Origin: a virus
Lineage: Duplodnaviria; Heunggongvirae; Uroviricota; Caudoviricetes
Length of the DNA: 23,140 bases
Virus record (IMG/VR): IMGVR_UViG_2869924733_000002
Direction: 5' to 3' (one strand)
The translations under genes and the position numbers were made by a program. The notes beneath the pieces are model-generated. The model had not been told where the DNA came from. It ran no database searches and saw only the letters and a program-made list of their open reading frames with translations. This document shows positions 4,193 through 23,140 of this stretch, piece by piece (positions within the stretch are counted from its first letter, which is position 1; the number at the start of each line of letters is the position of its first letter).

Positions 4193-4378
4193 ATGCGCCT
4201 TATCAAATTAAGCGAAGTCATGCTCAGAACGGGCTTCAAGAAAACGGCAATCTACTCATGGGTTAAGACGGGCACGTTTCCACAGCCAGTTAAAATTGGT
4301 AGATCAGCTAGATGGTCGCTTGAGGAGGTTGAAGCTTGGATCCAGAACAAACTTGATTCGCGGGCTGGCAACCAATGA
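4193..4378 (+). CDS. alpA: AlpA-family phage transcriptional regulator / excisionase-like protein
   Basis: 61 aa, MRLIKLSEVMLRTGFKKTAIYSWVKTGTFPQPVKIGRSARWSLEEVEAWI, the typical AlpA helix-turn-helix signature. SD AGAGGAG just upstream. Confidence 0.85.
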   Translation: MRLIKLSEVMLRTGFKKTAIYSWVKTGTFPQPVKIGRSARWSLEEVEAWIQNKLDSRAGNQ

Positions 4379-5775: not shown

Positions 5776-5780
5776 ACCAG

Positions 5781-7879: not shown

Positions 7880-7941
7880 TAGGCTGTGTCCCTTAATCAT
7901 CTGAGCTATAGTAACTGTCTGTTTACACAACATATTGAACT

Positions 7942-8786: not shown

Positions 8787-9887
8787 GGGACACAGCCTAG
8801 CCATTAATCACCCCATAGTGAAGAAAAGTTACTGCTGGCTGCTGGCTGTGATACCTGCTCAGATTGCGGCAATGTCTGCGACGAAGAAGAAGTTCCTCTG
8901 TCAACTGCTGAAATAACCCGCAAAGCATCATAAGCTCGACCAGAAGCAGCTTTCAGCGAATTGAACTGGTTTTCCATCTTCCGGCGCTTGGTATCAATGG
9001 TTTTTGTGGAGTCGCCAGGCTGAGGGAAATACATTTGATAATATTTTGACATTTCAGCAGGTGCGATAGCTGCCCCTGTTTCCTGACGGAGTATTGCCAT
9101 TATTGCGTCATTAGCATTAACAACGTATTGCTGCTCTGTTGGGCTGAGCGTTAAGTTAGCCAGCGTCCCATTACCCAAAGCATTATTAATGATCGCCACT
9201 CGCTGTGGGCTAAGCTGGTCTTTCAGTGTATCTATTGAATCAAGAGCATCCCTAACCCTGTATGCAAATCCAGCAGCTTTTTTAGCCCCTTCTGGCGACT
9301 TTTCCATGATCTTTTGGGCTGTTGGCAAAGCTATTGGACGAAACCCATCTCCAGATATTGGCTGGTTTAGTTTTCCCTGCTCTTCACTTCCGTCTGTGTA
9401 GTATTTTGTGACAGTGCCATCATCGTTTTCTCTAACACTCATTAATTTTTTGGCGTTTGTATTAATTCCAGCCGCTGCCGCAAATGCCGCCGCCCCCTCT
9501 GGATCCGCCTTTAACATTTGAGCGTACTGATTGTAATTCTGCATTGCTGCTGTTGGTGCATATGCTGACGTTAACGCATTTGCTCGGCTAATATCCTGCC
9601 CTCTCGCCTGAAGTGCTTCGCCAGCCTGATTGCTGCGGATTGTCTCTGCCAACTTGCCACGCTCAATATCCCGACCTTCCATTTGATCTTTGATATCGAA
9701 ATACTTCTCATGACCGAGAGAAAACAGTGCCATACTACCAGCAAGCCGCTGGAATCCCTGTGGATCATTAACATGCATTTCGGCAACAGACTCAGGAGAA
9801 ATTCCCAAGCGACGCATTTCATCTTCGTTATCTGCTATGAATTTTCCAAATGCCCCAGTTCCGAGCGAAGATGCGATTTGAGCACTA

Positions 9888-11040
9888 AATAGCTGCGCTT
9901 AATACCGCTACACTTTTGCCAGTCCATGTTTGCCTCCGGGGAATGGGCTGACGGTTTCCATAAAATGGCGAACTTTTTTCAACAGTTGCCACATTGAGCG
10001 GCACTGATGATTACGCGTTATTGTGTCGTGAAGTGCCTGCCATAGCCGTTCAACATGATTCACCCATGGCGAGTAAACCGGCTGATAAATGACCCTGAAC
10101 TTCGGGTTCTCCTTCAGCCAGCTCTGTGTTTCCCGGCTTTTGTGGATAATGTAGTTGTCCACGATCAGCGTGATGGTTTTCGCCCGACGGTATGTCGCTT
10201 TAAGCCGCTTCAGCAGGCTGATGAACAGCGCCGAACTTTTGCTGTTGCCGCCCACATAGCTGACTTTACCTGTCCCGCTGTGCAGCGCTCCGGCCAGATA
10301 ATATTTTTCATTCTGTCCCGGCGTGACCACCCGTTTTTGCTGTCCGCGCAGTTGCCAGTCCGCACCGATTTTGGGATGAAGATGGATATCCACTTCATCT
10401 TCATAAAAGACCGGATGCTCTGCGCTGCATTCGTCCAGTGCTTTATGGATTGCTGCCATCTTTTCATCTTTATGCGGGTCACGGATACGCAGAGTTGGCG
10501 CAGCCCTTCGCCACACAATCCCCGCAGACGGCAACCAGCGGCGAACGGTTCCGGCATTTAACTGGCAACCGGTTATCTCATTGATTTTTATTGCCAGCAG
10601 TTCTGTACTCCAGCGTGAACGCTGGTAGCCAAAGTCGCCGGGAGAATGTTTTACCAGCTCACGTAACAGTGTGCAGATATGCTCAAACGGCCAGCGACGG
10701 GCACGCCCGGCAGGTAATGATTTCAGTCCCTCAACACCCGACTGCGTGAACCAGTTAATCCAGCGTCCAACAGAGGAACGGGCGCAGCAGAGCGTTCTGG
10801 CAACGTCGCTGACACGGTCGCCCCGGTGCAGCATCAGCATGGCAGTCAGTCTGCGGGCATAATTTTTATCGTGTGTTTTATGGATGGCTTTCTGCATCAG
10901 GCGTCGTTCGTCACGGGAAATTGGTGCTATGATCGGCATTGCTCAGTCCGGTTGGTGATTTGTTTTGATTTGGCGATTGATCAGATCGCACAATCCGGGC
11001 TAAGTTCCCTCAAAATGATCTACTATTCCGCGCAGCTATT
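9888..11040 (-). mobile_element. IS630 (1153 bp) inserted at a CTAG target with TA duplication
   Basis: Terminal inverted repeats: aatagctgcgc at 9888-9898 and its reverse complement gcgcagctatt at 11030-11040. TA at 9886-9887 and 11041-11042. Length is exactly 1153 bp, matching the recalled IS630 size. Confidence 0.9.
9908..10939 (-). CDS. IS630-family transposase (343 aa)
   Basis: Full-length 343-aa ORF inside the IS630 boundaries, recognised as the Tc1/mariner-like IS630 transposase. Confidence 0.9.
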   Translation of the reverse strand: MPIIAPISRDERRLMQKAIHKTHDKNYARRLTAMLMLHRGDRVSDVARTLCCARSSVGRWINWFTQSGVEGLKSLPAGRARRWPFEHICTLLRELVKHSPGDFGYQRSRWSTELLAIKINEITGCQLNAGTVRRWLPSAGIVWRRAAPTLRIRDPHKDEKMAAIHKALDECSAEHPVFYEDEVDIHLHPKIGADWQLRGQQKRVVTPGQNEKYYLAGALHSGTGKVSYVGGNSKSSALFISLLKRLKATYRRAKTITLIVDNYIIHKSRETQSWLKENPKFRVIYQPVYSPWVNHVERLWQALHDTITRNHQCRSMWQLLKKVRHFMETVSPFPGGKHGLAKV

Positions 11041-11379
11041 TAGTCGCAAGATGACCAATAGAATTTCTCTGGTCGTCATCAATAAAGCCCATCCCTTTCT
11101 GAACGCTTTCAAATTCTTCTGGATACTCAGAAATAAGACTGCGCATTTTGTTTCTGTCTCCAGACTCAAAAGCCCCGGCATATGCTTTCTGAAACTCTGC
11201 TTTACGCTGTTGTTGACGTGCCTGCTGATTAATCTCAGCAACGCCTCTTAGCCCCTGTAGCGCCATTAAACCTACGTTTGGGTGCTGCTGATACTGCACA
11301 GGCTGAGGAACGGAAGAACGAGGAGCATTATCATTTTGCGGTGCCATGCTAGGCAGCCCGCCAAGTTGCCATGTCGCCA

Positions 11380-12057
11380 TTAGAATCCAAGCCCCCCAAC
11401 AAGACCAATAAGCCCACCACCAATAGCCCCGGCGACATTACCTATACCCGGAACAACGGAACCAAGTTGCGCACCCGCTAAAGCGCCTGATGCCGCCCCA
11501 CCAATACCACGCGCAAGACTGGATGGCTGCTGCGCCTGACCTGCACGAATAGCGCCAAGCCCCTGCAAGAGTTGCCCGGTATTATTGGCGTAGTTTTGCC
11601 CTGCTGTTGCCTGCCCTGATGCCGCATTCATCCCGACATTTAGCAGGTTTCCATAATTTTGCATTTGCCCACTGAGCCAATTGTTATAAAGCATGGGCGC
11701 AATGGAAGATAACTGGTTACTGGTAGCTGTTGAGCCAAGCCCCCCGGTAGCTTCTGCTGAGACAAGGTTCTGATAACGGGCCTGATCTGCCTGTGTTTTA
11801 TATAAACCAGAACCAAAGAAATCATTCGCGGCTTTATTCTGCCCTTCCAGAGTCATCAGTCCTTGCAGTTGTTGTAAAGCAGGCAATCCGACTTCTGCAT
11901 ACGGCTTGAGATTATTCATCACCGTATTCCACTGCTCGCGCTGCAAATCAATTGCCTGCTGCTGGGCCTTCGCCTGAGCTTTAGAGGCACCACCATCACC
12001 GCCTTTTTCGTATACGGCACGATTGAGATGTTTATGAGCTATATGGGTAATTAACAT
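11380..12057 (-). CDS. Hypothetical protein (225 aa) with Gly/Ala-rich glycine-zipper C-terminus; ejection-protein-like (tentative)
   Basis: C-terminal ...GIGGAASGALAGAQLGSVVPGIGNVAGAIGGGLIGLVGGLGF. Stop overlaps the next start (TAATG); start overlaps the upstream gene by 7 nt. Confidence 0.65.
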   Translation of the reverse strand: MLITHIAHKHLNRAVYEKGGDGGASKAQAKAQQQAIDLQREQWNTVMNNLKPYAEVGLPALQQLQGLMTLEGQNKAANDFFGSGLYKTQADQARYQNLVSAEATGGLGSTATSNQLSSIAPMLYNNWLSGQMQNYGNLLNVGMNAASGQATAGQNYANNTGQLLQGLGAIRAGQAQQPSSLARGIGGAASGALAGAQLGSVVPGIGNVAGAIGGGLIGLVGGLGF

Positions 12058-12512
12058 TCGCTGAATTCCTTATATTGTTGCCGAGTTAACTGATAAAGCG
12101 TTACGCCGACGGGTTTACCACATCTGATATAAGCATCATCAAGGTGACCAACACGGGTAGCGCCAAGCAAACGGATAATTGCCCGTCCATATTTCGTGGT
12201 GTCAGGAACCATAGTGATGCTGTTAAGGAATGGTGAGTTTTCGAGAAGCCATTTGCAGAATAATCGATGCCCTTGCAGTGCATATTCACCACGGAATCCG
12301 GGGTCGTACACCGCATGGCATTCAACAACGCTATGCCAGAAGTTACGCACTTCATGAACGCCAGCCAGCACTAATCCTTCGTAGATGCCGAGATATACCG
12401 CATCAGGCTTGATGTAGTACGTGTGCCCCGGCTCAACAATATTTTCGGTATTGCCTGGCTCGTTAAGAAAGGCCTGTAATCGCACAGGGTTATCAATAAA
12501 TTTTAGTTCCAT
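12051..12512 (-). CDS. Hypothetical protein (153 aa), first large gene of the operon
   Basis: ATG at 12512 lies 16 bp after the stop of the 53-aa ORF. Protein-like composition; no family recognised. Confidence 0.6.
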   Translation of the reverse strand: MELKFIDNPVRLQAFLNEPGNTENIVEPGHTYYIKPDAVYLGIYEGLVLAGVHEVRNFWHSVVECHAVYDPGFRGEYALQGHRLFCKWLLENSPFLNSITMVPDTTKYGRAIIRLLGATRVGHLDDAYIRCGKPVGVTLYQLTRQQYKEFSEC

Positions 12513-12528
12513 GCGATGCCATCCATTT

Positions 12529-13138: not shown

Positions 13139-13249
13139 GTTGGTTCAAAATACCGTGTTGTTGGTTCAGTGTTGGTTCAATAAAAAGAATAAAATCCTTA
13201 TAAAACAATACCATTTACAAATTGAACCAACTGAACCAACTGAACCAAC
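13139..13249. repeat. Iteron cluster immediately 3' of the primase-helicase gene (crr/ori-like)
   Basis: GTTGGTTCA at 13139-13147, 13160-13168, 13171-13179, then TGAACCAAC x3 in tandem at 13223-13249. Reverse complement of the module at 3555-3675, including an identical core of about 45 bp. Confidence 0.8.
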
Positions 13250-13274
13250 ACCTTTTCTACGCACATGAAGAAGC

Positions 13275-16034
13275 TCATTCTTCAGATGAGTTATAATCTC
13301 CTGGCTGGTAATTGAGTACATAAACGTTTATTTGTCGTCCCTGAATACGTGGTGATTTTCTTTGGTATCCACGACCGCTGTTTGGTGGGGTTAGCATCCC
13401 GGCTTTTTTCAACACTTCAGCAAACTGTTTTGCGTTGAAACCACATGCGATCTCCTTTTCAAATGTGGCCGGGAATGTGTAGAAAATCATTGGGCTTTCG
13501 TCATGTTCTCCACGCTGACGGTATCCGGCTAAATCTTTGATGGGCAAATCTGCCGGGCTGTATGGAAATGGTGCAAAACGGCTAAGCCCATAGGCATTAA
13601 GAAATGCCTCCGTTTGTTCAATAATCTGCTGATGTTCTTTGTTACCTGTGCCGAACTCGCGCAACCATGCGTTATAGCTGTGCTGTATCGCATCACGGCA
13701 TGTCTGAGCATCCCAGCCTGTTACAACCTCGCCTAACAGCAATGCGGCCTCCAGAATGGCAAATCGCGCGGCTACACGGTGAACCTGCTCACCATAATCG
13801 GATGGGATCAGGTTTCTCCATCTGCTTTCGCAATCACGAACGGTTTTAATAGCCTGTTGCTGGTGGTCTGCCAGCCATTTAATCCACTCACGCCCGGCTG
13901 CGCCGTGGTGATGCTGGTAAGCGTCTTTCAGTGCGTCTGCGTGCTGTTTTCCGTTCTGGTAATCGTGAAAGCGTACTGCTTTACTCAACGGAATATTCAG
14001 CAGTCGCACCAGTTGCCCGGCTTTGGTTTTTCGCCCGGAAGTAGCGATAAATGTTTCTAAATCCATTTCTCCGGTGCTGATTGCCACTGTACGCCAGCGT
14101 TTTAGATCCCGGTTTCCACCATCTTTAGCGCCTTGCAGTTTCCCTACACCGTTAAATAACGCATAGGCAGACTGTGAAACGCTGACAGGATCAGCGCCCT
14201 GACCAACTTCATCAAGCGGCATTAGTCCGTCATTGTGGGCGGCGGCCTCATTTGCCAGCCCCAGCGCGGTTCCGTACCACGTCAGCCGCAGTAAATCAGG
14301 GTTGCCGTATAAGCTGCTCGCCACGTTTGCCGTGGTGGTCTTACCTGCGCTCGACTGCTCATAGAAATGAATGCCGAACCCGTCAGCGCCCACCAGCCCA
14401 ATCAATGGCGCTGCCAGTGCTGCGCCGATCCCGGTCATCATTGAATAGTTACCAAAGGCCAGACGCGCCACGTTATCACGCCAGCTTTTCGCGCTCCCTG
14501 AGACGGTATATCCGGCTGCGGCTGAGCTTCTCCCGCTGAACAGCACAGGATTTTCAGGTGTTCCGATGATTTCCCCATCAGGCATGATGTACGCTCCGCA
14601 TTGCCAGCCAGTGGCATGAGCAACACGCCACAATTCACGAGAGCCACTGCGTTGTAGCCAGTCTGCCAGTATTGCTCTGAGGCTGCTTTTGGTCGTGACA
14701 TTTACCCCACCAGCTTTAAGTGTGCGCCATCCTTCACGTTCACCAATATCAGCCAGTGGAATGGCAGCGGTTGTCGGCGTTTCAGAACCAAACGACAGCC
14801 AGCGAAGAATGAGATACTGGTCTTTATCGTCTCTGCCAGTACCGATAACGCTTAACGGAGAACATAACCAGCTTTCGTTATTGATGATTTCTCCACTCTG
14901 GCTGTCAGCTCTCGGAGATACCCAATAAATACCATCCTCGCGGCTTTCTATTCTTGGTTTCAGTGGGTCGGTATCCATAACCTTAAAATCGCTTCCCTCA
15001 ATGGTCTGTGGCTCCTGTTTCACGCCATTACCCTGTGGTTGGTACATTGACTTATTGAACGCTTCTGTGGCGCATTTAATGCCGTGTTTTTGGTGGTAAT
15101 CATTCCAGTCTGCTTTGTGATCTGTCGGGGGTAATGCCACCCATCCAGAAACAGATAAAGCTGCTTTTTCTGCTGCTATTCTCCCCGTGTTTTGTCTTCC
15201 TTCGCTGTGGTCGTTATCCGCAGCAATGATGATTTGTGCTGAAGGAAATTTATCCCGCAGTACCTGGGCGACATATAACAGGTTCCCGGCATCAATCGCC
15301 GCCACTGTCAGCGCCTCTGGACGAATTAAATGGGCAGATAATGCCGTTGCCAGCCCTTCTGCGATTAAGATGCTCTGTGTTGTTTCTGGCGCGTTTATGG
15401 CGTGATATGCCCCCCGCTTTGCTGAACCTGTCAGGAGTCTTTTTTCACCATGTGATGTAATAGTCTGTGCTGCTGTGACTGCGCCGGATTTATCCACCAG
15501 CGCCAGCAACAGAGATCCATCGGGCAACACGGGGAATGTAAAATCACCTACCCCTTTCGCAACCAGATAATCAGATTTGCCGTTTACAGCCTTTCTGCGC
15601 ATGTCATCAAACTGACGGGAAAACGTATCCCGTCTTTGTTGTTCGTCCTTCTCTGCCCTTTTCAGGCGCTCCTGTTCGCGTCGCTGGCGCTCGGTTTCCA
15701 GTTGTTCCCGTTTCTGGCTGGTGGCTTCTGGTGTTTCCGTTGTCCGGTAATCAATACCCAGAACATCAGCGGCAAGAAGCGCCGCCTCTGTTGTGTCGCA
15801 GTTATTTACGCGTTTAATTAAATCCAGCCCATCACCAGCGCCGCACTGATTACAGATGAAGCTACCGCGCCCGTTGTCATCGAACCGGAATCGATCTTTG
15901 CCCCCACATGCAGGGCAGGGAGCATGACGGCGCGGAGAGTCAGGGACATTTATGTTCAGGCAGCCCAGCACATGAGGCCAGTTGTTTTCAGACGCACTGA
16001 TAACCTGACGGATAAGATCAATGTTTCGCATCAC
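13275..16034 (-). CDS. P4 alpha-like bifunctional DNA primase-helicase
   Basis: 919 aa. N-terminal Cys-rich zinc-binding motif (CPACGGKDRF...CNQCG), primase-like acidic motif (IIIAADNDHSEG), then a P-loop (EQSSAGKTT) in the helicase part. Start is GTG at 16034 or ATG at 16031. Confidence 0.9.
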   Translation of the reverse strand: MMRNIDLIRQVISASENNWPHVLGCLNINVPDSPRRHAPCPACGGKDRFRFDDNGRGSFICNQCGAGDGLDLIKRVNNCDTTEAALLAADVLGIDYRTTETPEATSQKREQLETERQRREQERLKRAEKDEQQRRDTFSRQFDDMRRKAVNGKSDYLVAKGVGDFTFPVLPDGSLLLALVDKSGAVTAAQTITSHGEKRLLTGSAKRGAYHAINAPETTQSILIAEGLATALSAHLIRPEALTVAAIDAGNLLYVAQVLRDKFPSAQIIIAADNDHSEGRQNTGRIAAEKAALSVSGWVALPPTDHKADWNDYHQKHGIKCATEAFNKSMYQPQGNGVKQEPQTIEGSDFKVMDTDPLKPRIESREDGIYWVSPRADSQSGEIINNESWLCSPLSVIGTGRDDKDQYLILRWLSFGSETPTTAAIPLADIGEREGWRTLKAGGVNVTTKSSLRAILADWLQRSGSRELWRVAHATGWQCGAYIMPDGEIIGTPENPVLFSGRSSAAAGYTVSGSAKSWRDNVARLAFGNYSMMTGIGAALAAPLIGLVGADGFGIHFYEQSSAGKTTTANVASSLYGNPDLLRLTWYGTALGLANEAAAHNDGLMPLDEVGQGADPVSVSQSAYALFNGVGKLQGAKDGGNRDLKRWRTVAISTGEMDLETFIATSGRKTKAGQLVRLLNIPLSKAVRFHDYQNGKQHADALKDAYQHHHGAAGREWIKWLADHQQQAIKTVRDCESRWRNLIPSDYGEQVHRVAARFAILEAALLLGEVVTGWDAQTCRDAIQHSYNAWLREFGTGNKEHQQIIEQTEAFLNAYGLSRFAPFPYSPADLPIKDLAGYRQRGEHDESPMIFYTFPATFEKEIACGFNAKQFAEVLKKAGMLTPPNSGRGYQRKSPRIQGRQINVYVLNYQPGDYNSSEE

Positions 16035-16389
16035 CGTACCCCACGTGGTCTATAGCGTTTGCGATATGGCTAACCAGCATCTGCCACTTGGTTATTCCGT
16101 AATCAGTCAGCATGCCATCATTGTTTAGCCACATATCAAATTCAGCGGTTGTCGCAAGTTTCCACTTATCGCCGTGGACAGTCCTCATTGCTGGGTACAT
16201 GAATGCGCAAATCAGATCACAAACATCTGACGGCTTCAGAGATGTAGTAATGGTGCGTCCCTCTGGCGTCTGAATTGCCATTTTCTCTTCACCAGTAGAA
16301 TGAAGGTTATGAATCCACACAGCACCAGCAATCTTTGCCACCTGCTCTCCGATTGCGGAGCTAAGCGCCATTTCTGCATTTTCACGCAT
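16018..16389 (-). CDS. Hypothetical protein (123 aa)
   Basis: Strong SD (GGGAGG) before the ATG at 16389. Overlaps the primase start. Confidence 0.6.
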   Translation of the reverse strand: MRENAEMALSSAIGEQVAKIAGAVWIHNLHSTGEEKMAIQTPEGRTITTSLKPSDVCDLICAFMYPAMRTVHGDKWKLATTAEFDMWLNNDGMLTDYGITKWQMLVSHIANAIDHVGYGDAKH

Positions 16390-16723
16390 GAGAACCTCCC
16401 GCTACAGTTGCGCCCATGTCATTAACCATGCTTTGCCATATCTCACGCCCGACGTCAGTCAATCCGTCCTTAGTGACGCAACGCTCAAGAAGCTCGATCC
16501 CCACGGTTTCCCACTGCGGGTAGAACACTTTCATGGCTGCCAGTGTGTAGCTATCGATCAGGCTGCGAACGCCTTTTACTCCATTAACGATTTCCACACG
16601 TACGGCCTCGCCGTCCGCATCAACCATGAAATAGTCCCCGCCGCTGGTGGAGGTAATGTGGTTATACAGTGCCGACGCATACTTATTTGCCAGCGCATTC
16701 AGTCGGAAATTTTTAGTAATCAT
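16382..16723 (-). CDS. Hypothetical protein (113 aa)
   Basis: SD GAGGATGGAG before the ATG at 16723. Overlaps the downstream start by 8 nt. Confidence 0.6.
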   Translation of the reverse strand: MITKNFRLNALANKYASALYNHITSTSGGDYFMVDADGEAVRVEIVNGVKGVRSLIDSYTLAAMKVFYPQWETVGIELLERCVTKDGLTDVGREIWQSMVNDMGATVAGGSHA

Positions 16724-16733
16724 GGCTCCATCC

Positions 16734-17336
16734 TCAGTGCGTCACTGGTTCCGCTGGCATGCCGTTTTCATTCAGTTCAGCTATAAAGCTGTTGTGAAGT
16801 TCAGCAAGCGTTTCACGACCAAATGGAGTCAGTGCTCCTTGTTCCACATCCATCATGGCTCTGTAGAAAATGATGGCGCGTTCTGTGCCAGACTCGATGC
16901 CAAAACGTTCTATCATCGCTCCCTCAATGTTGTTTGCCATAGCGAGGCGCTCTGCTACTGGATACAGCGGCATGGCGACGATGCCGTTGGAATAAACAGC
17001 CACTTCGGAAGGATTGCCAGTATCATCAATGATGCTGACAGTGCCGTTTTCCTCTCTCATTTCCAGCATGAATACTGTTGCGATCAGCCATCTCCACATA
17101 ATGACGTTATGCTGTGATGTGTAATCGAAATATCCCTGGTTGCCGCCATCGGCAATAGCGAGATGTATTGACATACCTTCATCTGGTTTATCGTCATAAT
17201 CCCCGGCATCCAGACGATTTACGGCATCAATATATGAGACGGCCTCAACGCGTTCTGTCATGCCATCGTTGCTGCGGTACATGATGTTTACGCCGTCAGG
17301 CGTTGCTTCTGTATGGAAAGTTAAGAAATTATTCAT
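16734..17336 (-). CDS. Hypothetical protein (200 aa; track ORF 16734..17441 trimmed to the internal ATG)
   Basis: The ATG at 17336 (MNNFLTFHTE...) has an SD-like AGGCGAGG and avoids overlap with the upstream gene. The longer track start lacks an SD. Confidence 0.5.
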   Translation of the reverse strand: MNNFLTFHTEATPDGVNIMYRSNDGMTERVEAVSYIDAVNRLDAGDYDDKPDEGMSIHLAIADGGNQGYFDYTSQHNVIMWRWLIATVFMLEMREENGTVSIIDDTGNPSEVAVYSNGIVAMPLYPVAERLAMANNIEGAMIERFGIESGTERAIIFYRAMMDVEQGALTPFGRETLAELHNSFIAELNENGMPAEPVTH

Positions 17337-17550
17337 GTTTCGCCTCGCCTGAATGATTCTGTAACTCATATTTGCCCAACAATTCGTCCGCTTCCTGAAT
17401 AGCTTCTGGTACGCCATTGAGCAGTGACATAACCGCGCCAATCATTAACTTGTCTCTGTTGCTGGGGCTGGCCCCTTCAAGCCAGAACCCTAAAACAGTC
17501 TGAACCTGTTCGATGCGACATTGCGCTTCAATGAGCTGGATGTTGGTCAT
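17329..17550 (-). CDS. Small hypothetical protein (73 aa)
   Basis: SD GGAGAG before the ATG. Overlaps its neighbours by a few nt on both sides. Confidence 0.5.
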   Translation of the reverse strand: MTNIQLIEAQCRIEQVQTVLGFWLEGASPSNRDKLMIGAVMSLLNGVPEAIQEADELLGKYELQNHSGEAKHE

Positions 17551-17810
17551 TTCGCACTCTCCACATCGATTAAACCGATATCTATCAGGGAGGTAACTTT
17601 TTGTAGCCAGCTATTGATTACTGTCGCCTGTTCCCCGCCCACCGAGGGAACAATCTCATTCATCACATGAACCAGACCTGTGCGCGCTCTGGTAAGCCGT
17701 TCAGTCGCGCAATCTGCGGGAGTGAATGTGTCTGGATATGGCTCTTCACGCCCCAGCAATGATTCAATTTCCAGCTCACACGGATGACGATAAATTAAGT
17801 TGATATTCAT
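17547..17810 (-). CDS. Small hypothetical protein (87 aa)
   Basis: SD GGGGGTG before the ATG at 17810. Start overlaps the upstream stop. Confidence 0.5.
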   Translation of the reverse strand: MNINLIYRHPCELEIESLLGREEPYPDTFTPADCATERLTRARTGLVHVMNEIVPSVGGEQATVINSWLQKVTSLIDIGLIDVESAK

Positions 17811-18001
17811 TTTTCACCCCCAAGAATTACCAGCTCGGCACGGGCATCGTTAACCAAAGATGAGCACGCTTTAATCGCATCCACGACATCAGTAGCGTCC
17901 ATTTCTTCAGCCGAAAGACTGACAGCAACCAGGACAGCCGCTGCTTGCTCGATTAATTGAAGTGCGGACGTAAGGCGAGGGGTATTAATTGAGTTATTCA
18001 T
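17807..18001 (-). CDS. Small hypothetical protein (64 aa; track ORF 17807..18058 trimmed to the internal ATG)
   Basis: [23 protein letters not shown]... The ATG at 18001 is preceded by a G-rich SD. Confidence 0.45.
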   Translation of the reverse strand: MNNSINTPRLTSALQLIEQAAAVLVAVSLSAEEMDATDVVDAIKACSSLVNDARAELVILGGEK

Positions 18002-19061
18002 TGGTTGCCCCCGTTTTTCCTGGCATTTCGCCACCTTCCAGCAGGAAATGAACGTCACGAACGGCGAGATCCAATATCGCGAGTAACGCCTTCAGTCTTT
18101 CGTCTCGTGAGGGAGAGTTGCTCACCAGAATGTCGTTAATCACTTCTGTCAGTGTGATGATCTGGCTTGTGCGTTCGAGGGGATCCATATGCACATCGTA
18201 GGTTTTAATCATGTGCCACCTCCATGCGGATACGACCAGCAAAAAAGCAGATGTGATCGCGCACCAGAGAACGGCGAGCATCGCGTTCAGACTCGGCAGC
18301 AATATGATGAATTTTGGCGGTAATTGTCGGGCAATCGCGGCGAACTGCGGCGATAATCCAGATAAATTGCGGTTTTTGGGTAGTGGTAGTAGCCAGCATG
18401 TGGCAGCCTCCTTGTACTGGGAGTTCTTCCCACCACCGGAGCTGCGAAACTCGCTGGTGGTGGACTGAACAGAGTTCGCAGTACCGGCGTACAAGGAAAC
18501 CGGCCAGCCTTTCGGCTGCCCTGTCCAGCCCACCATAATTTTGCAAGCGACGCGGATTATAACCGCATCACTGAAAAAAGTGTGAGTCTGGCTAACGGCA
18601 CAAAAAAAGACGCTCGGCGCGTCATGTGTCGCCTCGTACATTTCCGGGCTGCGAAACCCGGCACCCGTTTTATGAGGTGCCTTATAACCATAAACCGTGT
18701 TGCCGCATAACGGCAAGCTCTTTTTTATGGACTCCGAAAACTCACTATTGGAAGCACCAGATGCACAATACATCGCGCTCATTTCGTTAACGTCGCGCGT
18801 GTGGACGAAGGTTTTTGTGGAGTCACTACGCGAGCAGAGAAAGCCATCTACGACCAGAAATTCTCTGGCGCAGCCGCCGACCTTCTCAACGCTAACACCA
18901 TCGACCGTAATTTCTGACATAGTTAAGGCATCCGCTCCCACCACCAGAAAATGATAAACTTTGCTTGTATCTGCTGTATTAATGCCAGACTTTGCTGTCA
19001 TATTGCTGGATTTTGGCGACATACCAGCCAGTGAAAATATCTTCTTCTGGACGGTTAGCAT
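17994..19061 (-). CDS. Gene with a strong start at 19061; the 355-codon open frame has an ambiguous 3' end (see findings)
   Basis: ATG at 19061 with GGAGGT SD, 1 nt after the upstream stop. The N-terminal 150 or so residues look protein-like. The frame then stays open through a terminator-like hairpin (18601-18623), a structured region and an internal SD+ATG at 18212 (MIKTYDVH..., 72 aa). Confidence 0.4.
18205..18399 (-). CDS. Small hypothetical protein (64 aa) in an alternative frame
   Basis: AAGGAGG sits 7 nt upstream of the ATG at 18399 ([19 protein letters not shown]...). Its stop overlaps the internal ATG at 18212. Confidence 0.4.
   Translation of the reverse strand: MLATTTTQKPQFIWIIAAVRRDCPTITAKIHHIAAESERDARRSLVRDHICFFAGRIRMEVAHD
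18601..18623 (-). terminator. Putative intrinsic terminator or attenuator inside the long open frame
   Basis: Minus strand: GACGC-GCCGA-GCGTC hairpin followed by TTTTTTT. A TGA in another frame sits just before it. Confidence 0.35.
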
Positions 19062-19237
19062 TTGTTAACCTCCGCGAACTCCTTCATGAAGCGCGCCAGC
19101 GGTTGTACGCATGGCGATTGATACCCGTCGCGATAAAACGTCACTCGGTTGTGAGACACGCTTTCGACAGTAACGAGTGCTCCGTGGGCATCCTTGTAGC
19201 GTTTTTGAGGTTGTGGTGTTCCTGTCGGCTTAAACAT
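19055..19237 (-). CDS. Small hypothetical protein (60 aa; track ORF 19055..19324 trimmed to the internal ATG)
   Basis: GGAGGTGG lies 4 nt upstream of the ATG at 19237 (MFKPTGTPQPQKRYKDAHG...). The longer track start would overlap the upstream gene by about 95 nt. Confidence 0.5.
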   Translation of the reverse strand: MFKPTGTPQPQKRYKDAHGALVTVESVSHNRVTFYRDGYQSPCVQPLARFMKEFAEVNKC

Positions 19238-20063
19238 GGACCACCTCCAGACGCTTAGCGAGCCAGCGTTGCGACAGGCGGGTGAGTTCTCCTTTGCGCT
19301 GCTCATATTCCATGCCCATATCAATTAACGTGATATTGGTGCTTTCGAGATATGAGAGGTGCTCAAGTTGTTCTGCGTTCATATGGTCGCGAGGTTCGCC
19401 AGAATAGCCATTTATCCGCGCCCACTGCTTAGCAGTTAGCCCACCAAGAACGATACGAGAAATCATATTGCTCTCGTTTGTGTAGTGGTGTTGCTGCGTC
19501 GTTTTCCCCTGCTCGGCACGGGCCATATTCAGCGCATCGCACATTGGCTTAAAGTTGTTTGCGGCACTGATACGGGCTTTTAGCTGGCGACGATAGCGGG
19601 CGGCGATTTCAGGAACGCTACGCTGTAATTCTTCCTCGCACTGGATGAAATAACGGCGGATAGCGCGACCCTGATCATTGCGTTCGATCATTGCCAGTTC
19701 TTTCGCCATTCCGACACTTAACAGATAGTCTTTGCCGGGTCTGCCAGACTGCTTAATCTTTCTGTAAGCCGCGCCATTCGGGCTTTTCCCCAAATTTGGG
19801 GAAATAGTTTTATGGACTGAGTAATCGTGCCCAATGGTGAAGTCATATTCAGAGATGCGATCAGTGATCCATGTAGAGAAGTCTTTTCCCACGCCCAACG
19901 CTTTGTGTAACGCTTTTGCGCTAACAATATTGGTTTCACGCCCACCGATATGACCAGGAATAACCGGGACAATTGCGGCAAATTCATTACCGTTAATTGT
20001 GCTCAGAGAGGCGTTCAGATGAGGGGCGGCCTCAGAAATTAATCTGCTTTTTTCGATGTTCAT
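19230..20063 (-). CDS. Phage antirepressor/regulatory protein-like (Ant/KilAC/Rha-type), 277 aa
   Basis: The block SAKALHKALGVGKDFSTWITDRI ... KDYLLSVGMAKELAMIERNDQGRAIRRYFIQ resembles recalled antirepressor signatures. SD GGAGA before the ATG. Confidence 0.55.
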   Translation of the reverse strand: MNIEKSRLISEAAPHLNASLSTINGNEFAAIVPVIPGHIGGRETNIVSAKALHKALGVGKDFSTWITDRISEYDFTIGHDYSVHKTISPNLGKSPNGAAYRKIKQSGRPGKDYLLSVGMAKELAMIERNDQGRAIRRYFIQCEEELQRSVPEIAARYRRQLKARISAANNFKPMCDALNMARAEQGKTTQQHHYTNESNMISRIVLGGLTAKQWARINGYSGEPRDHMNAEQLEHLSYLESTNITLIDMGMEYEQRKGELTRLSQRWLAKRLEVVHV

Positions 20064-20075
20064 TTTCAGTCTCCG

Positions 20076-20507
20076 TTAAGCGGCGTTAAACGCGTCCGGG
20101 TAGAGTTTCAGAATGTCGGCAATTTCCTGCTGAGAAAGTCCGTTGTGATCATTTATGTTCGCAAGATGGTTAATATGAGTGATCACTTTCAGAACATCAC
20201 CACGGCAGGAGAAACGGTAGCGAAGGTGTGTTCCGATACCATCAGGATTCTTTTCGTCGATACGCTCCAGAGTGATTCCAAGCTGGCGTTCTAACTCTGT
20301 TGCATAGTTACGACCAGAAGACAGACGGCAGTAGCGAAGAATGTCATTTTCTGTCCATCCCTCTATACCAGTACGCAGCATATAGACTCTGGCACGATGC
20401 TTTTTCGGTGTGCGCTTTGGTGCTTGAAGGGATTTTGTAAGGGGCGTAACATCAGATACGCGAATATCTGAATTAGCCGCCTGTAATGGGCGGTTTTTCT
20501 TATTCAT
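20076..20507 (-). CDS. Hypothetical protein (143 aa) with a basic N-terminus
   Basis: Start overlaps the AlpA stop as TAATG. No family recognised. Confidence 0.55.
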   Translation of the reverse strand: MNKKNRPLQAANSDIRVSDVTPLTKSLQAPKRTPKKHRARVYMLRTGIEGWTENDILRYCRLSSGRNYATELERQLGITLERIDEKNPDGIGTHLRYRFSCRGDVLKVITHINHLANINDHNGLSQQEIADILKLYPDAFNAA

Positions 20508-20704
20508 TACGCTACCTCGCCACGCGACTCAGCGATGCGCTGATTAATCCATTCTTCAATTTCACTTTCAATAAACGCAATTGATCGGCTTCCAATCTTT
20601 ACAGATTGAGGGAATCGCTGTTCTTTGATGAGCCGATAAATCCACGCTTTGCTGTAACCAGTACGGCGTTGAACCTCAGAAAGACGAATAAATGATTGAG
20701 ACAT
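20507..20704 (-). CDS. alpA: AlpA-family phage transcriptional regulator / excisionase-like protein
   Basis: 65 aa, MSQSFIRLSEVQRRTGYSKAWIYRLIKEQRFPQSVKIGSRSIAFIESEIEEWI. SD AGGAG upstream. Confidence 0.85.
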   Translation of the reverse strand: MSQSFIRLSEVQRRTGYSKAWIYRLIKEQRFPQSVKIGSRSIAFIESEIEEWINQRIAESRGEVA

Positions 20705-20822
20705 GTTTACTCCTATATTCTGTCATCTTCTTTAATGGACATCAGTAGACAGAAAGGAGATTAAACAAACCGGTGAATGGGTGATAGCGGATAAAAATAA
20801 AATATTTTTTTGAGAAGATTAT

Positions 20823-20857
20823 CCGCTTTGAAATACACAGTAGCGTATTCAAAGCGG
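20823..20857. promoter_or_regulatory. Imperfect inverted repeat (13/14-bp arms) upstream of alpA; putative operator
   Basis: CCGCTTTGAAATAC - acagtagc - GTATTCAAAGCGG. No adjacent T-run on either strand, so it does not look like a terminator. Confidence 0.3.
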
Positions 20858-20901
20858 AAATCGCGAAATTTACTTAAAACGTTTACGTAGGATTTTGCTT
20901 G

Positions 20902-21783
20902 CTATAAATCTCTACTCATTAAATCAGATATTTTTATCAAGCTCATTTCTCTGTCTTTGTTTACATAAAGCTGAAGCAAGCGGGTGTATCTCTCGCTTAT
21001 AGATTCAAGTGCAAAAGGCTTTATTGATTCCTTAATAGCCTGCGTATCTTTCGGATCATCACTAAAAACCAAGGCAGAAATCATCGGATTGCTCACTTCC
21101 TTACCTGACTTCTCACCCCAAATCAGCAGATCAACAATAGGTATCACTCTATTAGATATCAACTTCTGAAGGGTCTTTAATCCAATCCTTTTCTGAGCGA
21201 CATGCTCTCTCTCTGGTACTTTTAACTCTTTTCGCCATAGAGGTAGAAGGTGAGTCAGGCTGGTAATAATTTCGTCATCAGTGGCGTCATCTAAATCTAT
21301 AGAAACGAGTATGATGTTAGGGGAACAATTACTTAGGTTTCCAGTAACACTCGCAAGCATAGCGTTTGCCTTGAGGTAGCAATCCTCTTCGTCTCTTTTA
21401 AAAAAGCCTTGATCTATCGATGAGAAAGAGTACATGGCCAGCTCTGAAAATGTTACTGGACTAACCCCCATAGCTGAAGATAATGAGGGAAGATCATCGT
21501 ACTCATTTCTTAATGATGGGGCTTCATCATTTACTTTGCGAATAAATTCTTCGACCTCTTCCTCTTCTTCATTGAGAATGGTTAGGTTAGGATCGCCCGA
21601 AAAAATCCTTTCATATTTTATATCGTACTCTTCTTTGAATATAGCAGTGTCATCTTTTGCATGACGCAATAAAAAATCGCGCCACTCTAATTCTTGAATC
21701 AAGTCCGGCAAGGTTAAATCATTTAAAAATTCATAATTACTAATATCAAACCATGCTAAATCTTGTTTTTTGGCTCTCACCAT
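20902..21783 (-). CDS. Hypothetical acidic protein (293 aa), AT-rich cargo gene between integrase and alpA
   Basis: Visibly AT-richer than its neighbours. G-rich SD before the ATG at 21783. Acidic stretch ILNEEEEEVEEF. No recognisable family. Confidence 0.65.
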   Translation of the reverse strand: MVRAKKQDLAWFDISNYEFLNDLTLPDLIQELEWRDFLLRHAKDDTAIFKEEYDIKYERIFSGDPNLTILNEEEEEVEEFIRKVNDEAPSLRNEYDDLPSLSSAMGVSPVTFSELAMYSFSSIDQGFFKRDEEDCYLKANAMLASVTGNLSNCSPNIILVSIDLDDATDDEIITSLTHLLPLWRKELKVPEREHVAQKRIGLKTLQKLISNRVIPIVDLLIWGEKSGKEVSNPMISALVFSDDPKDTQAIKESIKPFALESISERYTRLLQLYVNKDREMSLIKISDLMSRDL

Positions 21784-21925
21784 ACGCCACCCCGCGCCCC
21801 TAATTCTGACGGCTATGCCAGCCCGTAGGGGTGTACGGGTTTTCGGGGATCAGCCTAGACATAGCCTATTCTTTGTTCGTCTACATAAGTCTACTACCAT
21901 TGCTTAACACGGTCTATTCATACAG

Positions 21926-23140
21926 TTAAGCTCGTTTCCCAAACGAACCATGAACAACGTTCTCCTCCTTCTCCAGCGCATCCATATAGTCGGCATACCA
22001 TTGAAGCATCTCCCGCCTTCCATCCAGATATTGCGCATGGTTGTATGTGCCACGAATTGAGTTCTTATCAACGTGAGCGAGCTGCGTTTCTATCCACGCG
22101 GTGTTATAGCCCTGCTCATGCAAAATCGTGCTCATAGTGTGCCGGAACCCATGACCAGTTACACGTCCAGCGTAGCCAATGCGCTTAAACACTTGGTTTA
22201 TGCTGGCCTCACTCATTGTTTTCCTTGGATCATTGCGCCCGGGAAACATAAGAGGGTAATTGCCTGTTATTTCTCTAATCTTCCCAATAAGCGAAAGAGC
22301 CTGATCAGACAATGGCACAATATGAGGCCGCCGCATTTTCATACGTGAAGCGGGTATCTCCCAGATAGCCTTGTTGAAATCAATTTCATCCCATAATGCG
22401 CCACGTAGTTCGCCAGTCCGCAAGCCGGTGATAATCAGTAGACGAGCCGCCATAACAACCAATGCGCTTCCTGAGTAACTGGACAATGCCTTGAAAAAAT
22501 CAGGTAATTCTTTAGCTGTAAGGAAAGGGTAATGATTAGATTCATGGCCTTGCATCGCGCTAGTAAGGTCTGGTGCAGGGTTATACTCTGCGCGACCAGT
22601 GACTATTGCATAGCGGAAAACTTCCCCGCACCGCTGCCTCACTTTTTTGGCTTTTTCTGTAGCACCGCGCCCCTCGATGCGCCGCAGCACATTCAGAAGT
22701 TCAAGTGGTTTGATTTCGGCGATTGGTTTTTTGCCAATGTAAGGGAACACATCTTTGTTGAAGGCTTCGAGGATGTCTGAAGCATAACCAGCAGACCATT
22801 TTTTTAATTTGCTGCTGTGCCACTCAAGGGCAATATCTTTGAAGGTGTTGTTTAACTGCGTTTCCCGGGCAATCTTTTCCTCTCGTTTCGCTTCCATCGG
22901 ATCGATACCACCAGCGATACCTCTTTTCGCATCTTCACGTTTTGCCCGAGCATCGGCTAGAGTAACCTCAGGATACACACCTAGTGCCAATAGCTTCTCT
23001 TTACCAGCTACACGATATTTAAGTCGCCAGTATTTACCTCCATTAGGTTTTACCAAGAGATACAAACCGCCACCATCGGCCAGCTTGTAAGCCTTCTCTT
23101 TTGGCTTGGCTGTGTCTATTTGACGGGCATTGAGTTTCAC
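21926..23140 (-). CDS. P4-type tyrosine integrase (N-terminal arm-binding domain plus catalytic domain), 5' end at the window edge
   Basis: N-terminus AKPKEKAYKLADGGGLYLLVKPNGGKYWRLKYRVAGKEKLLALGVYPEVTLADARAKR is the P4-integrase arm-binding signature. Catalytic region has HGFRHTMSTILHEQG and the HAQY tyrosine motif. The GTG at 23138-23140 is probably one codon short of the real start. Confidence 0.9.
   Translation of the reverse strand: MKLNARQIDTAKPKEKAYKLADGGGLYLLVKPNGGKYWRLKYRVAGKEKLLALGVYPEVTLADARAKREDAKRGIAGGIDPMEAKREEKIARETQLNNTFKDIALEWHSSKLKKWSAGYASDILEAFNKDVFPYIGKKPIAEIKPLELLNVLRRIEGRGATEKAKKVRQRCGEVFRYAIVTGRAEYNPAPDLTSAMQGHESNHYPFLTAKELPDFFKALSSYSGSALVVMAARLLIITGLRTGELRGALWDEIDFNKAIWEIPASRMKMRRPHIVPLSDQALSLIGKIREITGNYPLMFPGRNDPRKTMSEASINQVFKRIGYAGRVTGHGFRHTMSTILHEQGYNTAWIETQLAHVDKNSIRGTYNHAQYLDGRREMLQWYADYMDALEKEENVVHGSFGKRA

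Follow-up and report, generated by a model that had tools for sequence, protein, structure and literature searches.

The window, as we call the whole stretch of 23,140 nucleotides analysed here, carries at its right edge the gene of a P4-type integrase, which reads inward from the thrW side and is followed on the minus strand by a DUF6387 cargo gene, alpA, an AntA-like gene, overlapping small genes and the gene of a 919-aa primase-helicase, matching every item listed in a first-pass annotation made from the letters alone. That annotation counted about ten coupled small genes; nine to ten lie between AlpA and the primase, with stops and starts overlapping by 1-17 nt. The features of this half are the following:

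21926..23140, minus strand: P4-type tyrosine integrase (Arm-DNA-bind_3, Phage_int_M and Phage_integrase domains)
21798..21865, minus strand: int-alpA RNA motif (Rfam RF02996, 46.7 bits, cut-off 35.8)
20902..21783, minus strand: DUF6387 cargo gene in a low-GC segment (GC 39-42%)
20507..20704, minus strand: AlpA (Pfam Phage_AlpA, E = 9e-20)
19055..20507, minus strand: 'Bro zone' with a DUF4222 protein, an AntA/AntB-type protein and a 143-aa protein
19230..20063, minus strand: the AntA/AntB-type protein
17994-19061, minus strand: Ash-family region inside an ORF
18453..18680, minus strand: P4-type immunity RNA region within the Ash-family ORF
18453-18540, minus strand: C4 (CI-like) RNA (Rfam, 81.1 bits, gathering cut-off 45)
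18603-18680, minus strand: isrK (seqA-like) RNA (Rfam, 69 bits, cut-off 50)
16018..18001, minus strand: six overlapping small genes (123, 113, 200, 73, 87 and 64 aa), no assigned function
13275..16034, minus strand: primase-helicase, 919 aa (Zn_Ribbon_Prim, Toprim_3 and DUF927; phrog_1139, E = 1e-178)
13139..13249: proximal iteron array, a PICI-type origin with two iteron sets around an AT-rich spacer

Over 39 nt the immunity RNA region shares 90% identity with that of P4, and the order of the six small genes is kept in relatives. The iteron, the 9-mer GTTGGTTCA, occurs 12 times in the window versus 0.10 copies expected by chance. In the proximal array three plus-strand copies (at 13139, 13160 and 13171) precede the AT-rich spacer, and three tandem minus-strand copies (13223-13249) follow it, their end lying 26 nt away from the stop of the primase gene. 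Published PICI origins are built alike, with one set of iterons on either side of an AT-rich region (PMC6092414). Primase and iterons had been proposed to form one replicon, and this is borne out: the N-terminal 359 aa of the primase are 33% identical to P4 alpha, and relatives have other iteron words (GTTGTCTCA, GTCGGTTCA, ACGGGTTAC) in the same fixed layout. The iteron cluster reported directly 3' of the primase gene is present, but it is not the only one. A distal array at 3555-3675, with six further copies, is its mirror image (three tandem GTTGGTTCA, an AT-rich spacer, then three inverted copies 21 nt apart). This module of about 150 nt is kept in 6 genera between unrelated flanks.

Late cassette and right-end genes

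Between integrase and iterons there are no virion genes, as the first-pass annotation held. For the rest of the element this is not true, since P22-type virion genes begin 630 nt beyond the proximal iterons:

12051..12512, minus strand: P22 gp14 homologue (Pfam DUF2824, E = 2e-61; phrog_651)
11380..12057, minus strand: P22 gp7 ejection protein (Pfam P22_gp7, E = 2e-72)
11036..11380, minus strand: P22 gene 20-type ejection protein, N-terminal part (phrog_917, E = 5e-37)
9888..11040, minus strand: IS630 within gene 20 (99.8% identical to annotated IS630)
8804..9887, minus strand: P22 gene 20-type ejection protein, C-terminal part (phrog_917, Pfam Inj_translocase)
7883..8797, plus strand: ISSfl7-like IS of the IS5 family, with terminal inverted repeats (99.9% identical to annotated ISSfl7-family copies)
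5781..7882, minus strand: P22 gene 16-type ejection protein (phrog_770, E = 9e-155)
5343..5762, plus strand: 139-aa predicted membrane protein, no assigned function, in a segment differing from EcCIMP1
4193..4378, plus strand: alpA_1, a second AlpA-family gene, Xis-like (Pfam Phage_AlpA, E = 2e-13)
3555..3675: distal iteron array, ending 37 nt upstream of perC
3237..3518, minus strand: PerC-family regulator (Pfam PerC, E = 4e-30)
2091..2633, minus strand: PRiA4_ORF3-family protein, an accessory gene kept at the relatives' right end (Pfam PF07929, E = 1e-42)
1739..2098, plus strand: h119, a conserved right-end gene of 119 aa
1528..1537: attR core GATAATAGGA, far boundary of the element

The late cassette of the window copy is defective, because IS630 splits gene 20 and the ISSfl7-like IS, which lies at codon 2-3 of gene 16, separates this gene from its start; the remaining gene 16 frame, about 700 codons long, stays open. 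Both insertions are absent from an IS-free copy (L001), in which the two parts of gene 20 are continuous and each of genes 14, 7, 20 and 16 forms an intact ORF, gene 16 encoding 701 aa. A cassette of the same type occurs in a PICI of Leclercia whose integrase is unrelated, and a gene 20-gene 16 pair is found in another E. coli PICI, beside dinD. On these three grounds the cassette belongs to the island. No capsid-morphogenesis, terminase or Rpp-type packaging genes were found in the element, so that the contiguous capsid or terminase genes named beforehand as evidence against a satellite are not present; neither was a pac- or cos-like match to P4 or to the P22-like phage Kapi1. A sieA homologue was not found beside the ejection genes, and the 139-aa membrane protein has no Pfam or PHROG match, no phage homologue by tblastn and no described SieA motif.

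Boundaries and identity of the element

EcCIMP1 of E. coli MP1 is a 19,963-bp PICI located at thrW (tRNA-Thr), with the att core TCCTATTATC. It excises and circularises depending on AlpA and Int, and is transduced only with its helper phage, the P22-like Kapi1, at very low frequency even in MP1 (Pick, Stadel & Raivio, ISME J 2025; PMC11773190). The MP1 element leaves as a single circle of this size, late cassette included (PMC11773190). The published core matches the window core at 1528-1537, read there directly as its reverse complement, and an E. coli locus (PigCaeca_2) shows AATGGTGC-GATAATAGGA at the position equivalent to attR. In two relatives (L007, L012) TCCTATTATCGGCAC is repeated about 200 nt past h119, the last gene. 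h119 also precedes attR in L005, L009 and L065 (91-95% identity in the five).

No tRNA gene lies within the 23,140-nt window. As the first-pass annotation expected, the tRNA and att site are just outside: thrW and attL were placed from 99-100% identical E. coli loci, in which thrW starts 166 bp beyond the integrase start. The direct repeat to be sought inside the window is the core at 1528-1537, and because it sits there the element measures about 21.8 kb (about 19.7 kb without its two IS elements), from 1528 to about 180 bp past 23140. The earlier end at the iterons has thus to be given up: the element is twice as long, and 13139-23140 is only the integrase-proximal half of a PICI. To the left of the 10-bp core, a foreign int remnant of the SfII/SfIV/SfV type and IS600 now stand in place of the attR flank.

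The backbone shows 98.4-99.4% nucleotide identity to EcCIMP1 over 1525-5337, 11220-20695 and 21950-23140, and Pri (99.6%), Int (97.8%), gp7 (99.6%) and PerC (100%, EcCIMP1_025) are close to identical to the MP1 proteins. By sequence, the element is therefore of an already known kind, a copy of the EcCIMP1-like PICI described earlier. We are confident that it represents an EcCIMP1-type PICI that sits at the tRNA-Thr gene thrW and is a satellite of phages like P22 (Lederbergvirus). The suggestion of an integrative satellite with its own replicon is right, and agrees with the behaviour of EcCIMP1, whose backbone is 98-99% identical. Helper dependence, excision and packaging of the window copy are carried over by analogy from the MP1 element. 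Among 5426 complete E. coli genomes, 357 contain the primase/gene 14 junction. SatelliteFinder rules rate such elements as 'Type C' PICIs only.

The layout is the four-zone plan of Gram-negative PICIs. The integration zone consists of int, the int-alpA RNA motif, a swappable cargo gene and alpA, the 'Bro' zone of the AntA-type protein and the P4-like CI/seqA immunity RNA, and the replication zone of the primase-helicase and the iteron origin. The late zone holds P22 genes 14-7-20-16, followed by the mirrored second iteron array, the Xis-like AlpA_1, the PerC-like regulator and PRiA4_ORF3.

Concerning the course of events, helper induction would switch on alpA, the master regulator of EcCIMP1, AlpA and Int would excise the island at the TCCTATTATC core, and the circle would move in helper particles at low frequency, as shown for the near-identical MP1 copy (PMC11773190). 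The primase-helicase probably binds to the GTTGGTTCA iterons and opens the AT-rich spacer, the C4/isrK RNA pair may hold the early operon off at rest, as in P4, and the island's ejection proteins with their gp14 partner may enter helper procapsids. In MP1 the island can do without alpA_1, which helps excision of the helper Kapi1, and the PerC-like EcCIMP1_025 repressed LEE1 in C. rodentium (PMC11773190).

Comparison with known satellites and alternative explanations

With EcCIMP1 the element shares the thrW site, the att core, the gene order and 98-99% nucleotide identity over int, alpA to primase, ori, genes 14 and 7, alpA_1, perC and PRiA4. In contrast, gene 20 is 48% identical, over its N-terminus only, gene 16 is unrelated (701 aa here, a 906-aa SLT-bearing protein in EcCIMP1), the next gene also differs, AlpA is 76% identical and the window copy has two IS insertions. 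The DUF6387 gene, absent from EcCIMP1, takes the place of EcCIMP1_002, and 20696-21949 has no nucleotide match to MP1. The four genes and their order are those of the P22 ejection module, carried here by a satellite and not by a phage. Gene 20 C-terminus and gene 16, the variable part among island copies, are also what is reported to vary most among P22-like phages and to carry the mutations that escape SieA (Leavitt et al.; PMC10461980). gp14 and gp7 are 83% and 58% identical to Kapi1; the helper's other alleles are highly diverged (gp20 26-34%, gp16 <=24% or undetectable).

EcCICFT073 and EcCIEDL933, from which EcCIMP1 is phylogenetically distant (PMC11773190), likewise have an inward int beside att, AlpA, unidirectional genes, a primase followed by a two-iteron-set origin around an AT-rich region, and PerC-like accessory genes (Fillol-Salom et al. 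2018; PMC6092414). Unlike them, the window element lacks capsid-morphogenesis and Rpp-type packaging genes, and has podoviral ejection genes in its late zone and a second, distal iteron array. The four zones, the immunity RNAs found by C4 and isrK models and a dynamic late zone that takes its genes from helper prophages agree with the PICIs of Tommasini, Mageeney & Williams (2023; PMC10111431). That study covers lambdoid late genes and fis, hpt or prophage-embedded sites, and leaves tape measure and ejection genes unmentioned; the set captured here comprises DNA-delivery genes of a P22-like phage, at thrW.

The first-pass annotation left the choice between P4-like and PICI-type; in its helper-exploitation module the element is not a P4-family satellite. 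A satellite of the strict P4 family would parasitise a P2-like myovirus by Sid/Psu capsid remodelling, Delta/Epsilon cross-activation and a P2-type cos. Integrase (42% identical to P4 Int over full length, 50% to Kapi1 Int), Vis/AlpA (39% to P4 ORF88), the C4 and isrK immunity RNAs, the Ash region, the Zn-ribbon-Toprim primase half of alpha and two clusters of one iteron, like P4 ori and crr, one of them lying, as crr does, directly 3' of the primase gene, all resemble P4. However, tblastn with P4 Sid, Delta, Psu, Epsilon, Gop, Beta and cII gave no match in the window, nor did cos. Moreover, the helicase/origin-binding half is DUF927 and not D5_N-DUF5906-Pox_D5, the iteron word is unlike the P4 type 1 repeat, the late genes are of podovirus type, and the reference copy has a P22-like phage, not P2, as its proven helper. 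We regard this reading as the least probable of all. Scarcely more credible is a fusion remnant, in which a P22-like prophage and a P4-like island lay in tandem at thrW and a deletion joined the origin to gene 14, leaving the ejection genes as dead prophage DNA. P22-type and Sf-type phages do use thrW, the Sf-type int fragment adjoins attR, and genes 14-7-20-16 stand in exact P22 order up to the P22 late operon end, with an Xis-like gene next in opposite orientation, as in P22-like genomes. Yet the cassette lies inside the att-delimited element, before perC, PRiA4 and h119, the right-end genes of cassette-less relatives, and in MP1 it leaves with the excised circle, for which the attP junction is already reported. 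The intact ORFs of L001, the junction in 357 genomes and the recurrence in the Leclercia and dinD PICIs also speak against it, as does a published argument for late-gene capture by PICIs over the fusion hypothesis (PMC10111431).

An EcCIMP1-type PICI thus remains our preferred reading, and within it the state of the window copy has to be considered. Int, alpA, the primase, the origin and the attR core look intact, as does the distal array. The copy may have lost transfer, given two IS-disrupted late genes and the foreign int remnant and IS600 abutting attR. It may even be a relic that is decaying and can no longer move, and that persists, if it does, because of its regulators and cargo (the PerC-like repressor, the DUF6387 protein) and not as a working satellite; we hold this possibility to be real though rather unlikely. 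The IS load would suggest a Shigella-like genome, in which decay of this kind is frequent; against a relic stand the intact parts, the dispensability of alpA_1 in MP1 and the only putative necessity of the late cassette.

The family plan int-alpA-AntA-Ash-small genes-pri-ori-(ssb)-perC...PRiA4-h119-attR is found in dozens of Enterobacterales species. Possibly new at the family level is that relatives in many genera carry, downstream of the primase, genes for tape-measure, ejection or baseplate-hub proteins; five further genera have such genes between two conserved iteron arrays.

An EcCIMP1-type island at thrW

By sequence comparison, the element is an already known EcCIMP1-type PICI, and the window holds an IS-damaged allelic variant of it. 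EcCIMP1, the PICI of E. coli MP1, is a 19,963-bp element at a tRNA-Thr gene between proA and yagU with the att core TCCTATTATC; besides integrase and primase genes it has two AlpA genes, Ash, PerC, an antirepressor and 'DNA transfer' genes (Pick, Stadel and Raivio, ISME J 2025, PMC11773190). For the MP1 copy, helper-dependent behaviour has been established experimentally with the P22-like phage Kapi1: excision and circularisation occur only in Kapi1 lysogens and are stronger after mitomycin C, alpA and int are required for excision, and Kapi1 transduces the element at low frequency (PMC11773190). Moreover, the PerC-like protein of EcCIMP1 represses LEE1, and its alpA_1 aids the excision of Kapi1 (PMC11773190). 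The P22-type 'DNA transfer' genes were left as hypothetical proteins in that work, and the origin was not discussed (PMC11773190).

Nucleotide identity between the window and the MP1 locus is 99.4% in 1525-5337, 98.4% in 11220-20695 and 98.4% in 21950-23140; at the protein level it is 99.6% for Pri, 97.8% for Int and 100% for PerC. Two segments of the window have no nucleotide match in MP1, namely 20696-21949 with the DUF6387 cargo gene and 5338-11219 with most of gene 20, gene 16 and a membrane protein gene. The window-type gp20 matches MP1 gp20 at the N-terminus only (48%), and gp16 is unrelated between the copies (701 aa in the window type; the MP1 protein has 906 aa and an SLT domain). The junction of primase and gene 14 is found in 357 of 5426 complete E. 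coli genomes, and window-type gene 16 in 398 genomes at 92-100% identity. The finding as posed is the re-discovery of a characterised satellite; its main value is a corrected annotation, in which the real boundaries and the IS damage are set, the immunity RNAs are recognised as P4-like and the 'DNA transfer' genes as P22-type.

In a complete-genome comparison, window 1509-23140 is 99% identical to the IS-free thrW island of E. coli PigCaeca_2 (locus L001) except for two insertions, 7883-8797 and 9888-11040. Here thrW, a tRNA-Thr(CGU) adjoining proA, lies 166 bp past the integrase start, a distance seen in loci 99-100% identical to the window; no tRNA gene was found in the window itself. The integrase gene reads inward beside a specific att site, as in Gram-negative PICIs; attL itself lies beyond the window and is visible in related loci only. 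A tRNA and att site just outside the window, as proposed in the first-pass annotation, are borne out by these loci. Its placement of the far end at the iterons has to be revised, since late genes continue past them to an attR core, GATAATAGGA, at 1528-1537. This 10-bp core, the direct repeat that had been looked for inside the window, matches the published TCCTATTATC. PigCaeca_2 reads AATGGTGC-GATAATAGGA at the equivalent position, and in thrW islands of Enterobacter and Lonsdalea the tRNA 3' end TCCTATTATCGGCAC is repeated about 200 nt past a 119-aa gene. Because the attR core and the att repeats of PigCaeca_2 and the relatives fall at the same place, we take the element to extend from 1528 to about 180 bp past the window, a length of about 21.8 kb (about 19.7 kb once the IS elements are subtracted). 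Searches requiring at least 12 identical bases did not recover attR in the E. coli loci owing to the degeneracy of the repeat, with one base deleted in L001 and only the 10-bp core retained in the window; it was recognised by reading the sequence beside the conserved last gene.

Left of attR, the window contains:

1-819, IS600-type orfB
924-1512, plus strand, C-terminal integrase remnant, 92% identical to the integrases of SfII/SfIV/SfV/phi458

The frame of the remnant is broken by a 28-bp tandem duplication (1174-1237). The remnant ends 15 nt short of the attR core; therefore a second thrW-targeting element formerly stood here in tandem.

Early genes, origin and late genes

The integrase, AlpA, antirepressor-like protein, small genes, primase-helicase and iterons of the first-pass annotation are all found at 13139-23140, and its integrative satellite with an own replicon was right in kind. 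From the right edge leftwards, the early half contains:

21926-23140, minus strand, tyrosine integrase, 404 aa (Arm-DNA-bind_3, Phage_int_M and Phage_integrase domains)
21798-21865, minus strand, int-alpA RNA motif (Rfam RF02996, 46.7 bits), immediately past the stop of the integrase gene
inward after the integrase, minus strand, genes for a DUF6387 protein, AlpA, a 143-aa protein and an AntA/AntB-type protein
20507-20704, minus strand, AlpA of this series, a regulator downstream of int as in PICIs
then, minus strand, a DUF4222 protein gene, an Ash-family region and six more small overlapping genes
18603-18680, isrK RNA (Rfam, 69 bits, above cut-off)
18453-18540, C4 RNA (Rfam, 81 bits, above cut-off)
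13275-16034, minus strand, primase-helicase, 919 aa (Zn_Ribbon_Prim, Toprim_3 and DUF927 domains)
13139-13249, proximal iteron array, starting 26 nt past the primase stop: three tandem GTTGGTTCA, an AT-rich spacer and three inverted copies

The 9-mer GTTGGTTCA occurs 12 times in the window versus 0.10 expected. A primase followed by an origin with two iteron sets around an AT-rich region is found in Gram-negative PICIs, and the layout of the proximal array is the published PICI origin organisation (PMC6092414). The DUF6387 gene lies within a low-GC segment (20696-21949, GC 39-42%) between int and alpA; since this segment has no counterpart in EcCIMP1, the int-alpA interval looks like a swappable cargo slot.

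Past the origin, the late half contains:

12051-12512, gene 14 homologue (DUF2824)
11380-12057, gene 7 homologue (P22_gp7)
11036-11380 and 8804-9887, gene 20 homologue in two pieces (Inj_translocase)
5781-7882, gene 16 homologue (phrog_770)
4193-4378, second AlpA-family gene (alpA_1)
3555-3675, distal iteron array, a mirror of the proximal array
3237-3518, PerC-family gene, followed by a PRiA4_ORF3 gene and the 119-aa gene

Between gene 16 and alpA_1 lies the membrane protein gene. From int to perC all genes are on the minus strand with the exception of alpA_1, this 139-aa membrane gene and the transposase gene of an IS5-family element. We rejected the membrane gene as a sieA, as it has no phage homologue and no SieA motif.

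Two insertions damage this copy. An IS630 element (9888-11040) splits gene 20, and an ISSfl7-like element of the IS5 family (7883-8797) sits at codon 2-3 of gene 16, leaving about 700 open codons without a start. In the IS-free copy, genes 14, 7, 20 and 16 are intact at 153, 225, 473 and 701 aa. No damage is apparent in the window in int, alpA, the primase, either iteron array or the attR core. In PigCaeca_2 (L001 12145-13960), gene 16 is annotated by RefSeq as a pseudogene that is incomplete; an open frame of 701 codons runs from 13960 to 11858, so the flag probably arose because the reference proteins used for comparison are longer. A terminator-like hairpin with a T-run (12794-12809, minus strand) separates the proximal array from a 53-aa ORF and gene 14, and the stretch 12400-13350 showed no sigma-70-like promoter.

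Relation to P4, P22-like phages and other PICIs

The assignment to a P4-type element in the first-pass annotation holds for one part of the island. The integrase is of the P4 type (42% identical to P4 Int), AlpA is 39% identical to P4 ORF88, and CI-RNA-type immunity is shared, as the C4 and isrK Rfam models pick up the P4 CI and seqA immunity RNAs (PMC10111431). By Pfam and tblastn, primase residues 1-359 are 33% identical to residues 5-339 of alpha, which is the Zn-ribbon-Toprim half; the C-terminal half of alpha, however, consists of D5_N, DUF5906 and Pox_D5, whereas the window protein has DUF927. Two clusters of one iteron are also common to both, P4 having crr directly 3' of alpha and ori elsewhere. 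Tblastn of P4 proteins found no homologue of Sid, Psu, Delta, Epsilon, Gop, Beta or cII in the window, and the P4 cos region gave no significant match to indicate a P2-type cos. Strict P4 membership fails on sid, psu, delta, epsilon and cos, all absent. Thus, the early, immunity and primase parts are P4-related and the helper-exploitation part is not.

The lack of virion genes between integrase and iterons, as given in the first-pass annotation, is borne out; past the iterons lie the P22 genes 14, 7, 20 and 16, and capsid and terminase genes were not found in the window. Apart from these four homologues the window has no P22-like content: terminase, portal, scaffold, coat, tail-accessory, tailspike, lysis and CI/Cro genes were not found in it. 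The sole nucleotide match between the window and Kapi1 is 11923-12512; blastn with the full Kapi1 genome and the P4 cos region gave no match outside genes 14 and 7, and a pac or cos mimic was rejected. An origin of genes 14-16 by fusion with a prophage is contradicted by the att boundaries, the published excision product and the independent occurrences. Neither are the other PICI types a match. For a cf-PICI, capsid, portal, protease, head-tail connector and small terminase genes are missing among the window ORFs, and the insertion site is chromosomal thrW, between proA and the yagU/pao region, and not a helper-prophage late gene as in HE-PICIs. The small size and, in searches of the window ORFs, the absence of lysis, capsid and terminase genes are those of PICIs, the ejection-protein genes being the sole virion functions. 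The element belongs with the Gram-negative PICIs, for which a four-zone plan (Integration, Bro, Replication, Late) and the capture of late genes have been described previously (PMC10111431).

Split origins and DNA-delivery genes among relatives

We surveyed one genome per species bearing the primase (77 loci) by ORF calls and profile hits. The usual order is int, (cargo), alpA, 143-aa gene, AntA, Ash, small genes, primase, origin, often ssb, and perC, and in several relatives the right end consists of PRiA4 and the 119-aa gene. The iteron words vary (GTTGGTTCA, GTTGTCTCA, GTCGGTTCA, ACGGGTTAC) while the layout is constant, which supports the iterons as candidate initiator binding sites. Many relatives have a compact origin of about 300 bp whose far end, immediately before the next gene, is an inverted tandem triplet. 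This far part stands apart as an array of its own, 5-9.6 kb downstream, in Escherichia, Cedecea, Rosenbergiella, Chimaeribacter, Pantoea and Serratia; there it has three iterons spaced 21 nt apart, followed by an AT-rich spacer, three iterons in inverted tandem and a box resembling TTATATATA. The distal module of about 150 nt is kept in all six genera with unrelated flanks; by analogy, it may be similar to P4 crr. Just upstream of it, two direct copies of GTAAGACAG/GTAAGACA are present in four genera (L059 19650-19690, L019 19925-19965, L020 21535-21575 and L025 21730-21770 of the fetched loci) and absent in Escherichia, and could serve as a further binding site.

Virion DNA-delivery proteins are among those encoded between the arrays in the other five two-array genera, and DNA-delivery genes occupy the same position downstream of the primase in relatives that lack a distal array:

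12 loci, full-length tape-measure proteins (858-1136 aa), each preceded by a 108-aa gene
5-6 loci, SLT-bearing 'lytic tail' or tape-measure-like proteins
3 loci, baseplate hub
Escherichia, Leclercia and Pectobacterium, P22-type ejection proteins
4 loci, another podoviral internal-virion set (phrog_1044, 992, 3003 and 684)

Among 90 large ORFs downstream of and co-oriented with the primase, Pfam identified SLT in 7, TMP_3 in 6, a hub in 3, and portal, capsid and large terminase in 2 each. By approximate count, about 27 of 45 species-level relatives have a tape-measure, ejection or hub gene in the late zone, and capsid, portal or terminase genes are rare. The delivery gene is clearly within the element in att-delimited L012 of Lonsdalea and in L005, L021 and L034, where it lies upstream of the conserved right-end genes; EcCIMP1 excises together with its cassette (PMC11773190). 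Right boundaries are proven for a minority of loci, among tape-measure bearers these four and the two-array loci. In most tape-measure-bearing relatives no attR repeat of at least 12 bases was found within the fetched 10-kb flank, and attR there lies past this flank or has a repeat of less than 12 bases. A Leclercia island whose integrase is unrelated and whose primase is only 68% identical nevertheless has the MP1-type cassette (gp20 88%, gp16 84%). At dinD, a different integration site, a related PICI of E. coli strain 779 (L082, NZ_CP086220.1 3785599-3809700) carries a gene 20-gene 16 pair, an Abi-family gene and PerC, and lacks genes 14 and 7.

The delivery-cargo pattern across the family is shown by this survey. 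In the searchable open-access literature we found no report of it and no published satellite encoding tape-measure or ejection proteins. What it serves is a more speculative matter. Leavitt et al. found genes 16 and 20 to be the most variable of the E-protein genes and SieA-escape mutations to lie in C-terminal regions of gp16 and gp20 (PMC10461980). Identity of the island proteins to those of Kapi1 is 83% for gp14, 58% for gp7, 26-34% for gp20 and at most 24% or undetectable for gp16. Since they diverge where genes 20 and 16 vary and SieA escape maps, we infer that the satellite could supply its own conduit plus an assembly partner, one possible benefit being to enter cells excluding the helper's conduit. 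As a general rule this is tentative and, in our estimate, rather improbable: the lineage with a Toprim-DUF927 primase and mostly GTTGGTTCA-type iterons would systematically carry delivery proteins of the helper's morphotype, and not capsid or packaging genes, as the satellite's own conduit in transducing particles, divergent in the gene 20/16 region under SieA-type exclusion and allowing entry into cells including helper lysogens that bar the helper conduit. Such proteins may comprise P22-type ejection proteins with gp14, other podoviral internal virion proteins, tape-measure proteins with the 108-aa partner, and baseplate hubs. If true, an own DNA-delivery conduit would give satellites a new way of exploiting or escaping their helpers and could account for the unexplained superinfection phenotype reported for EcCIMP1. 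Beyond the re-annotation, an origin that is one of two mirrored arrays bracketing the late zone, in a layout conserved in six genera, and delivery-gene late zones in over half of the species-level relatives could matter more; the split origin and the family-wide DNA-delivery cargo are the parts worth following up.

Some loci deserve separate mention. In a distant relative from Serratia fonticola (L046 18602-20314, primase 52% identical) a large terminase gene lies about 6 kb downstream of the primase; this gene, and the portal and capsid matches in two loci overall, may belong to cf-PICI-like members or to neighbouring prophages. L004 (CACSKA010000004.1), a typical enterobacterial island member with a primase 78% identical, is on an assembly labelled Chryseobacterium sp., which suggests contamination or mislabelling. 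Table 1 of PMC13612085 lists 16.5-kb PICIs of Enterobacter cloacae having AntA, Icd and PerC with 'VirB/VirD4 T4SS components'; these calls may be lytic-transglycosylase or tape-measure genes, because genes of the SLT/tape-measure type are present in the surveyed Enterobacter relatives.
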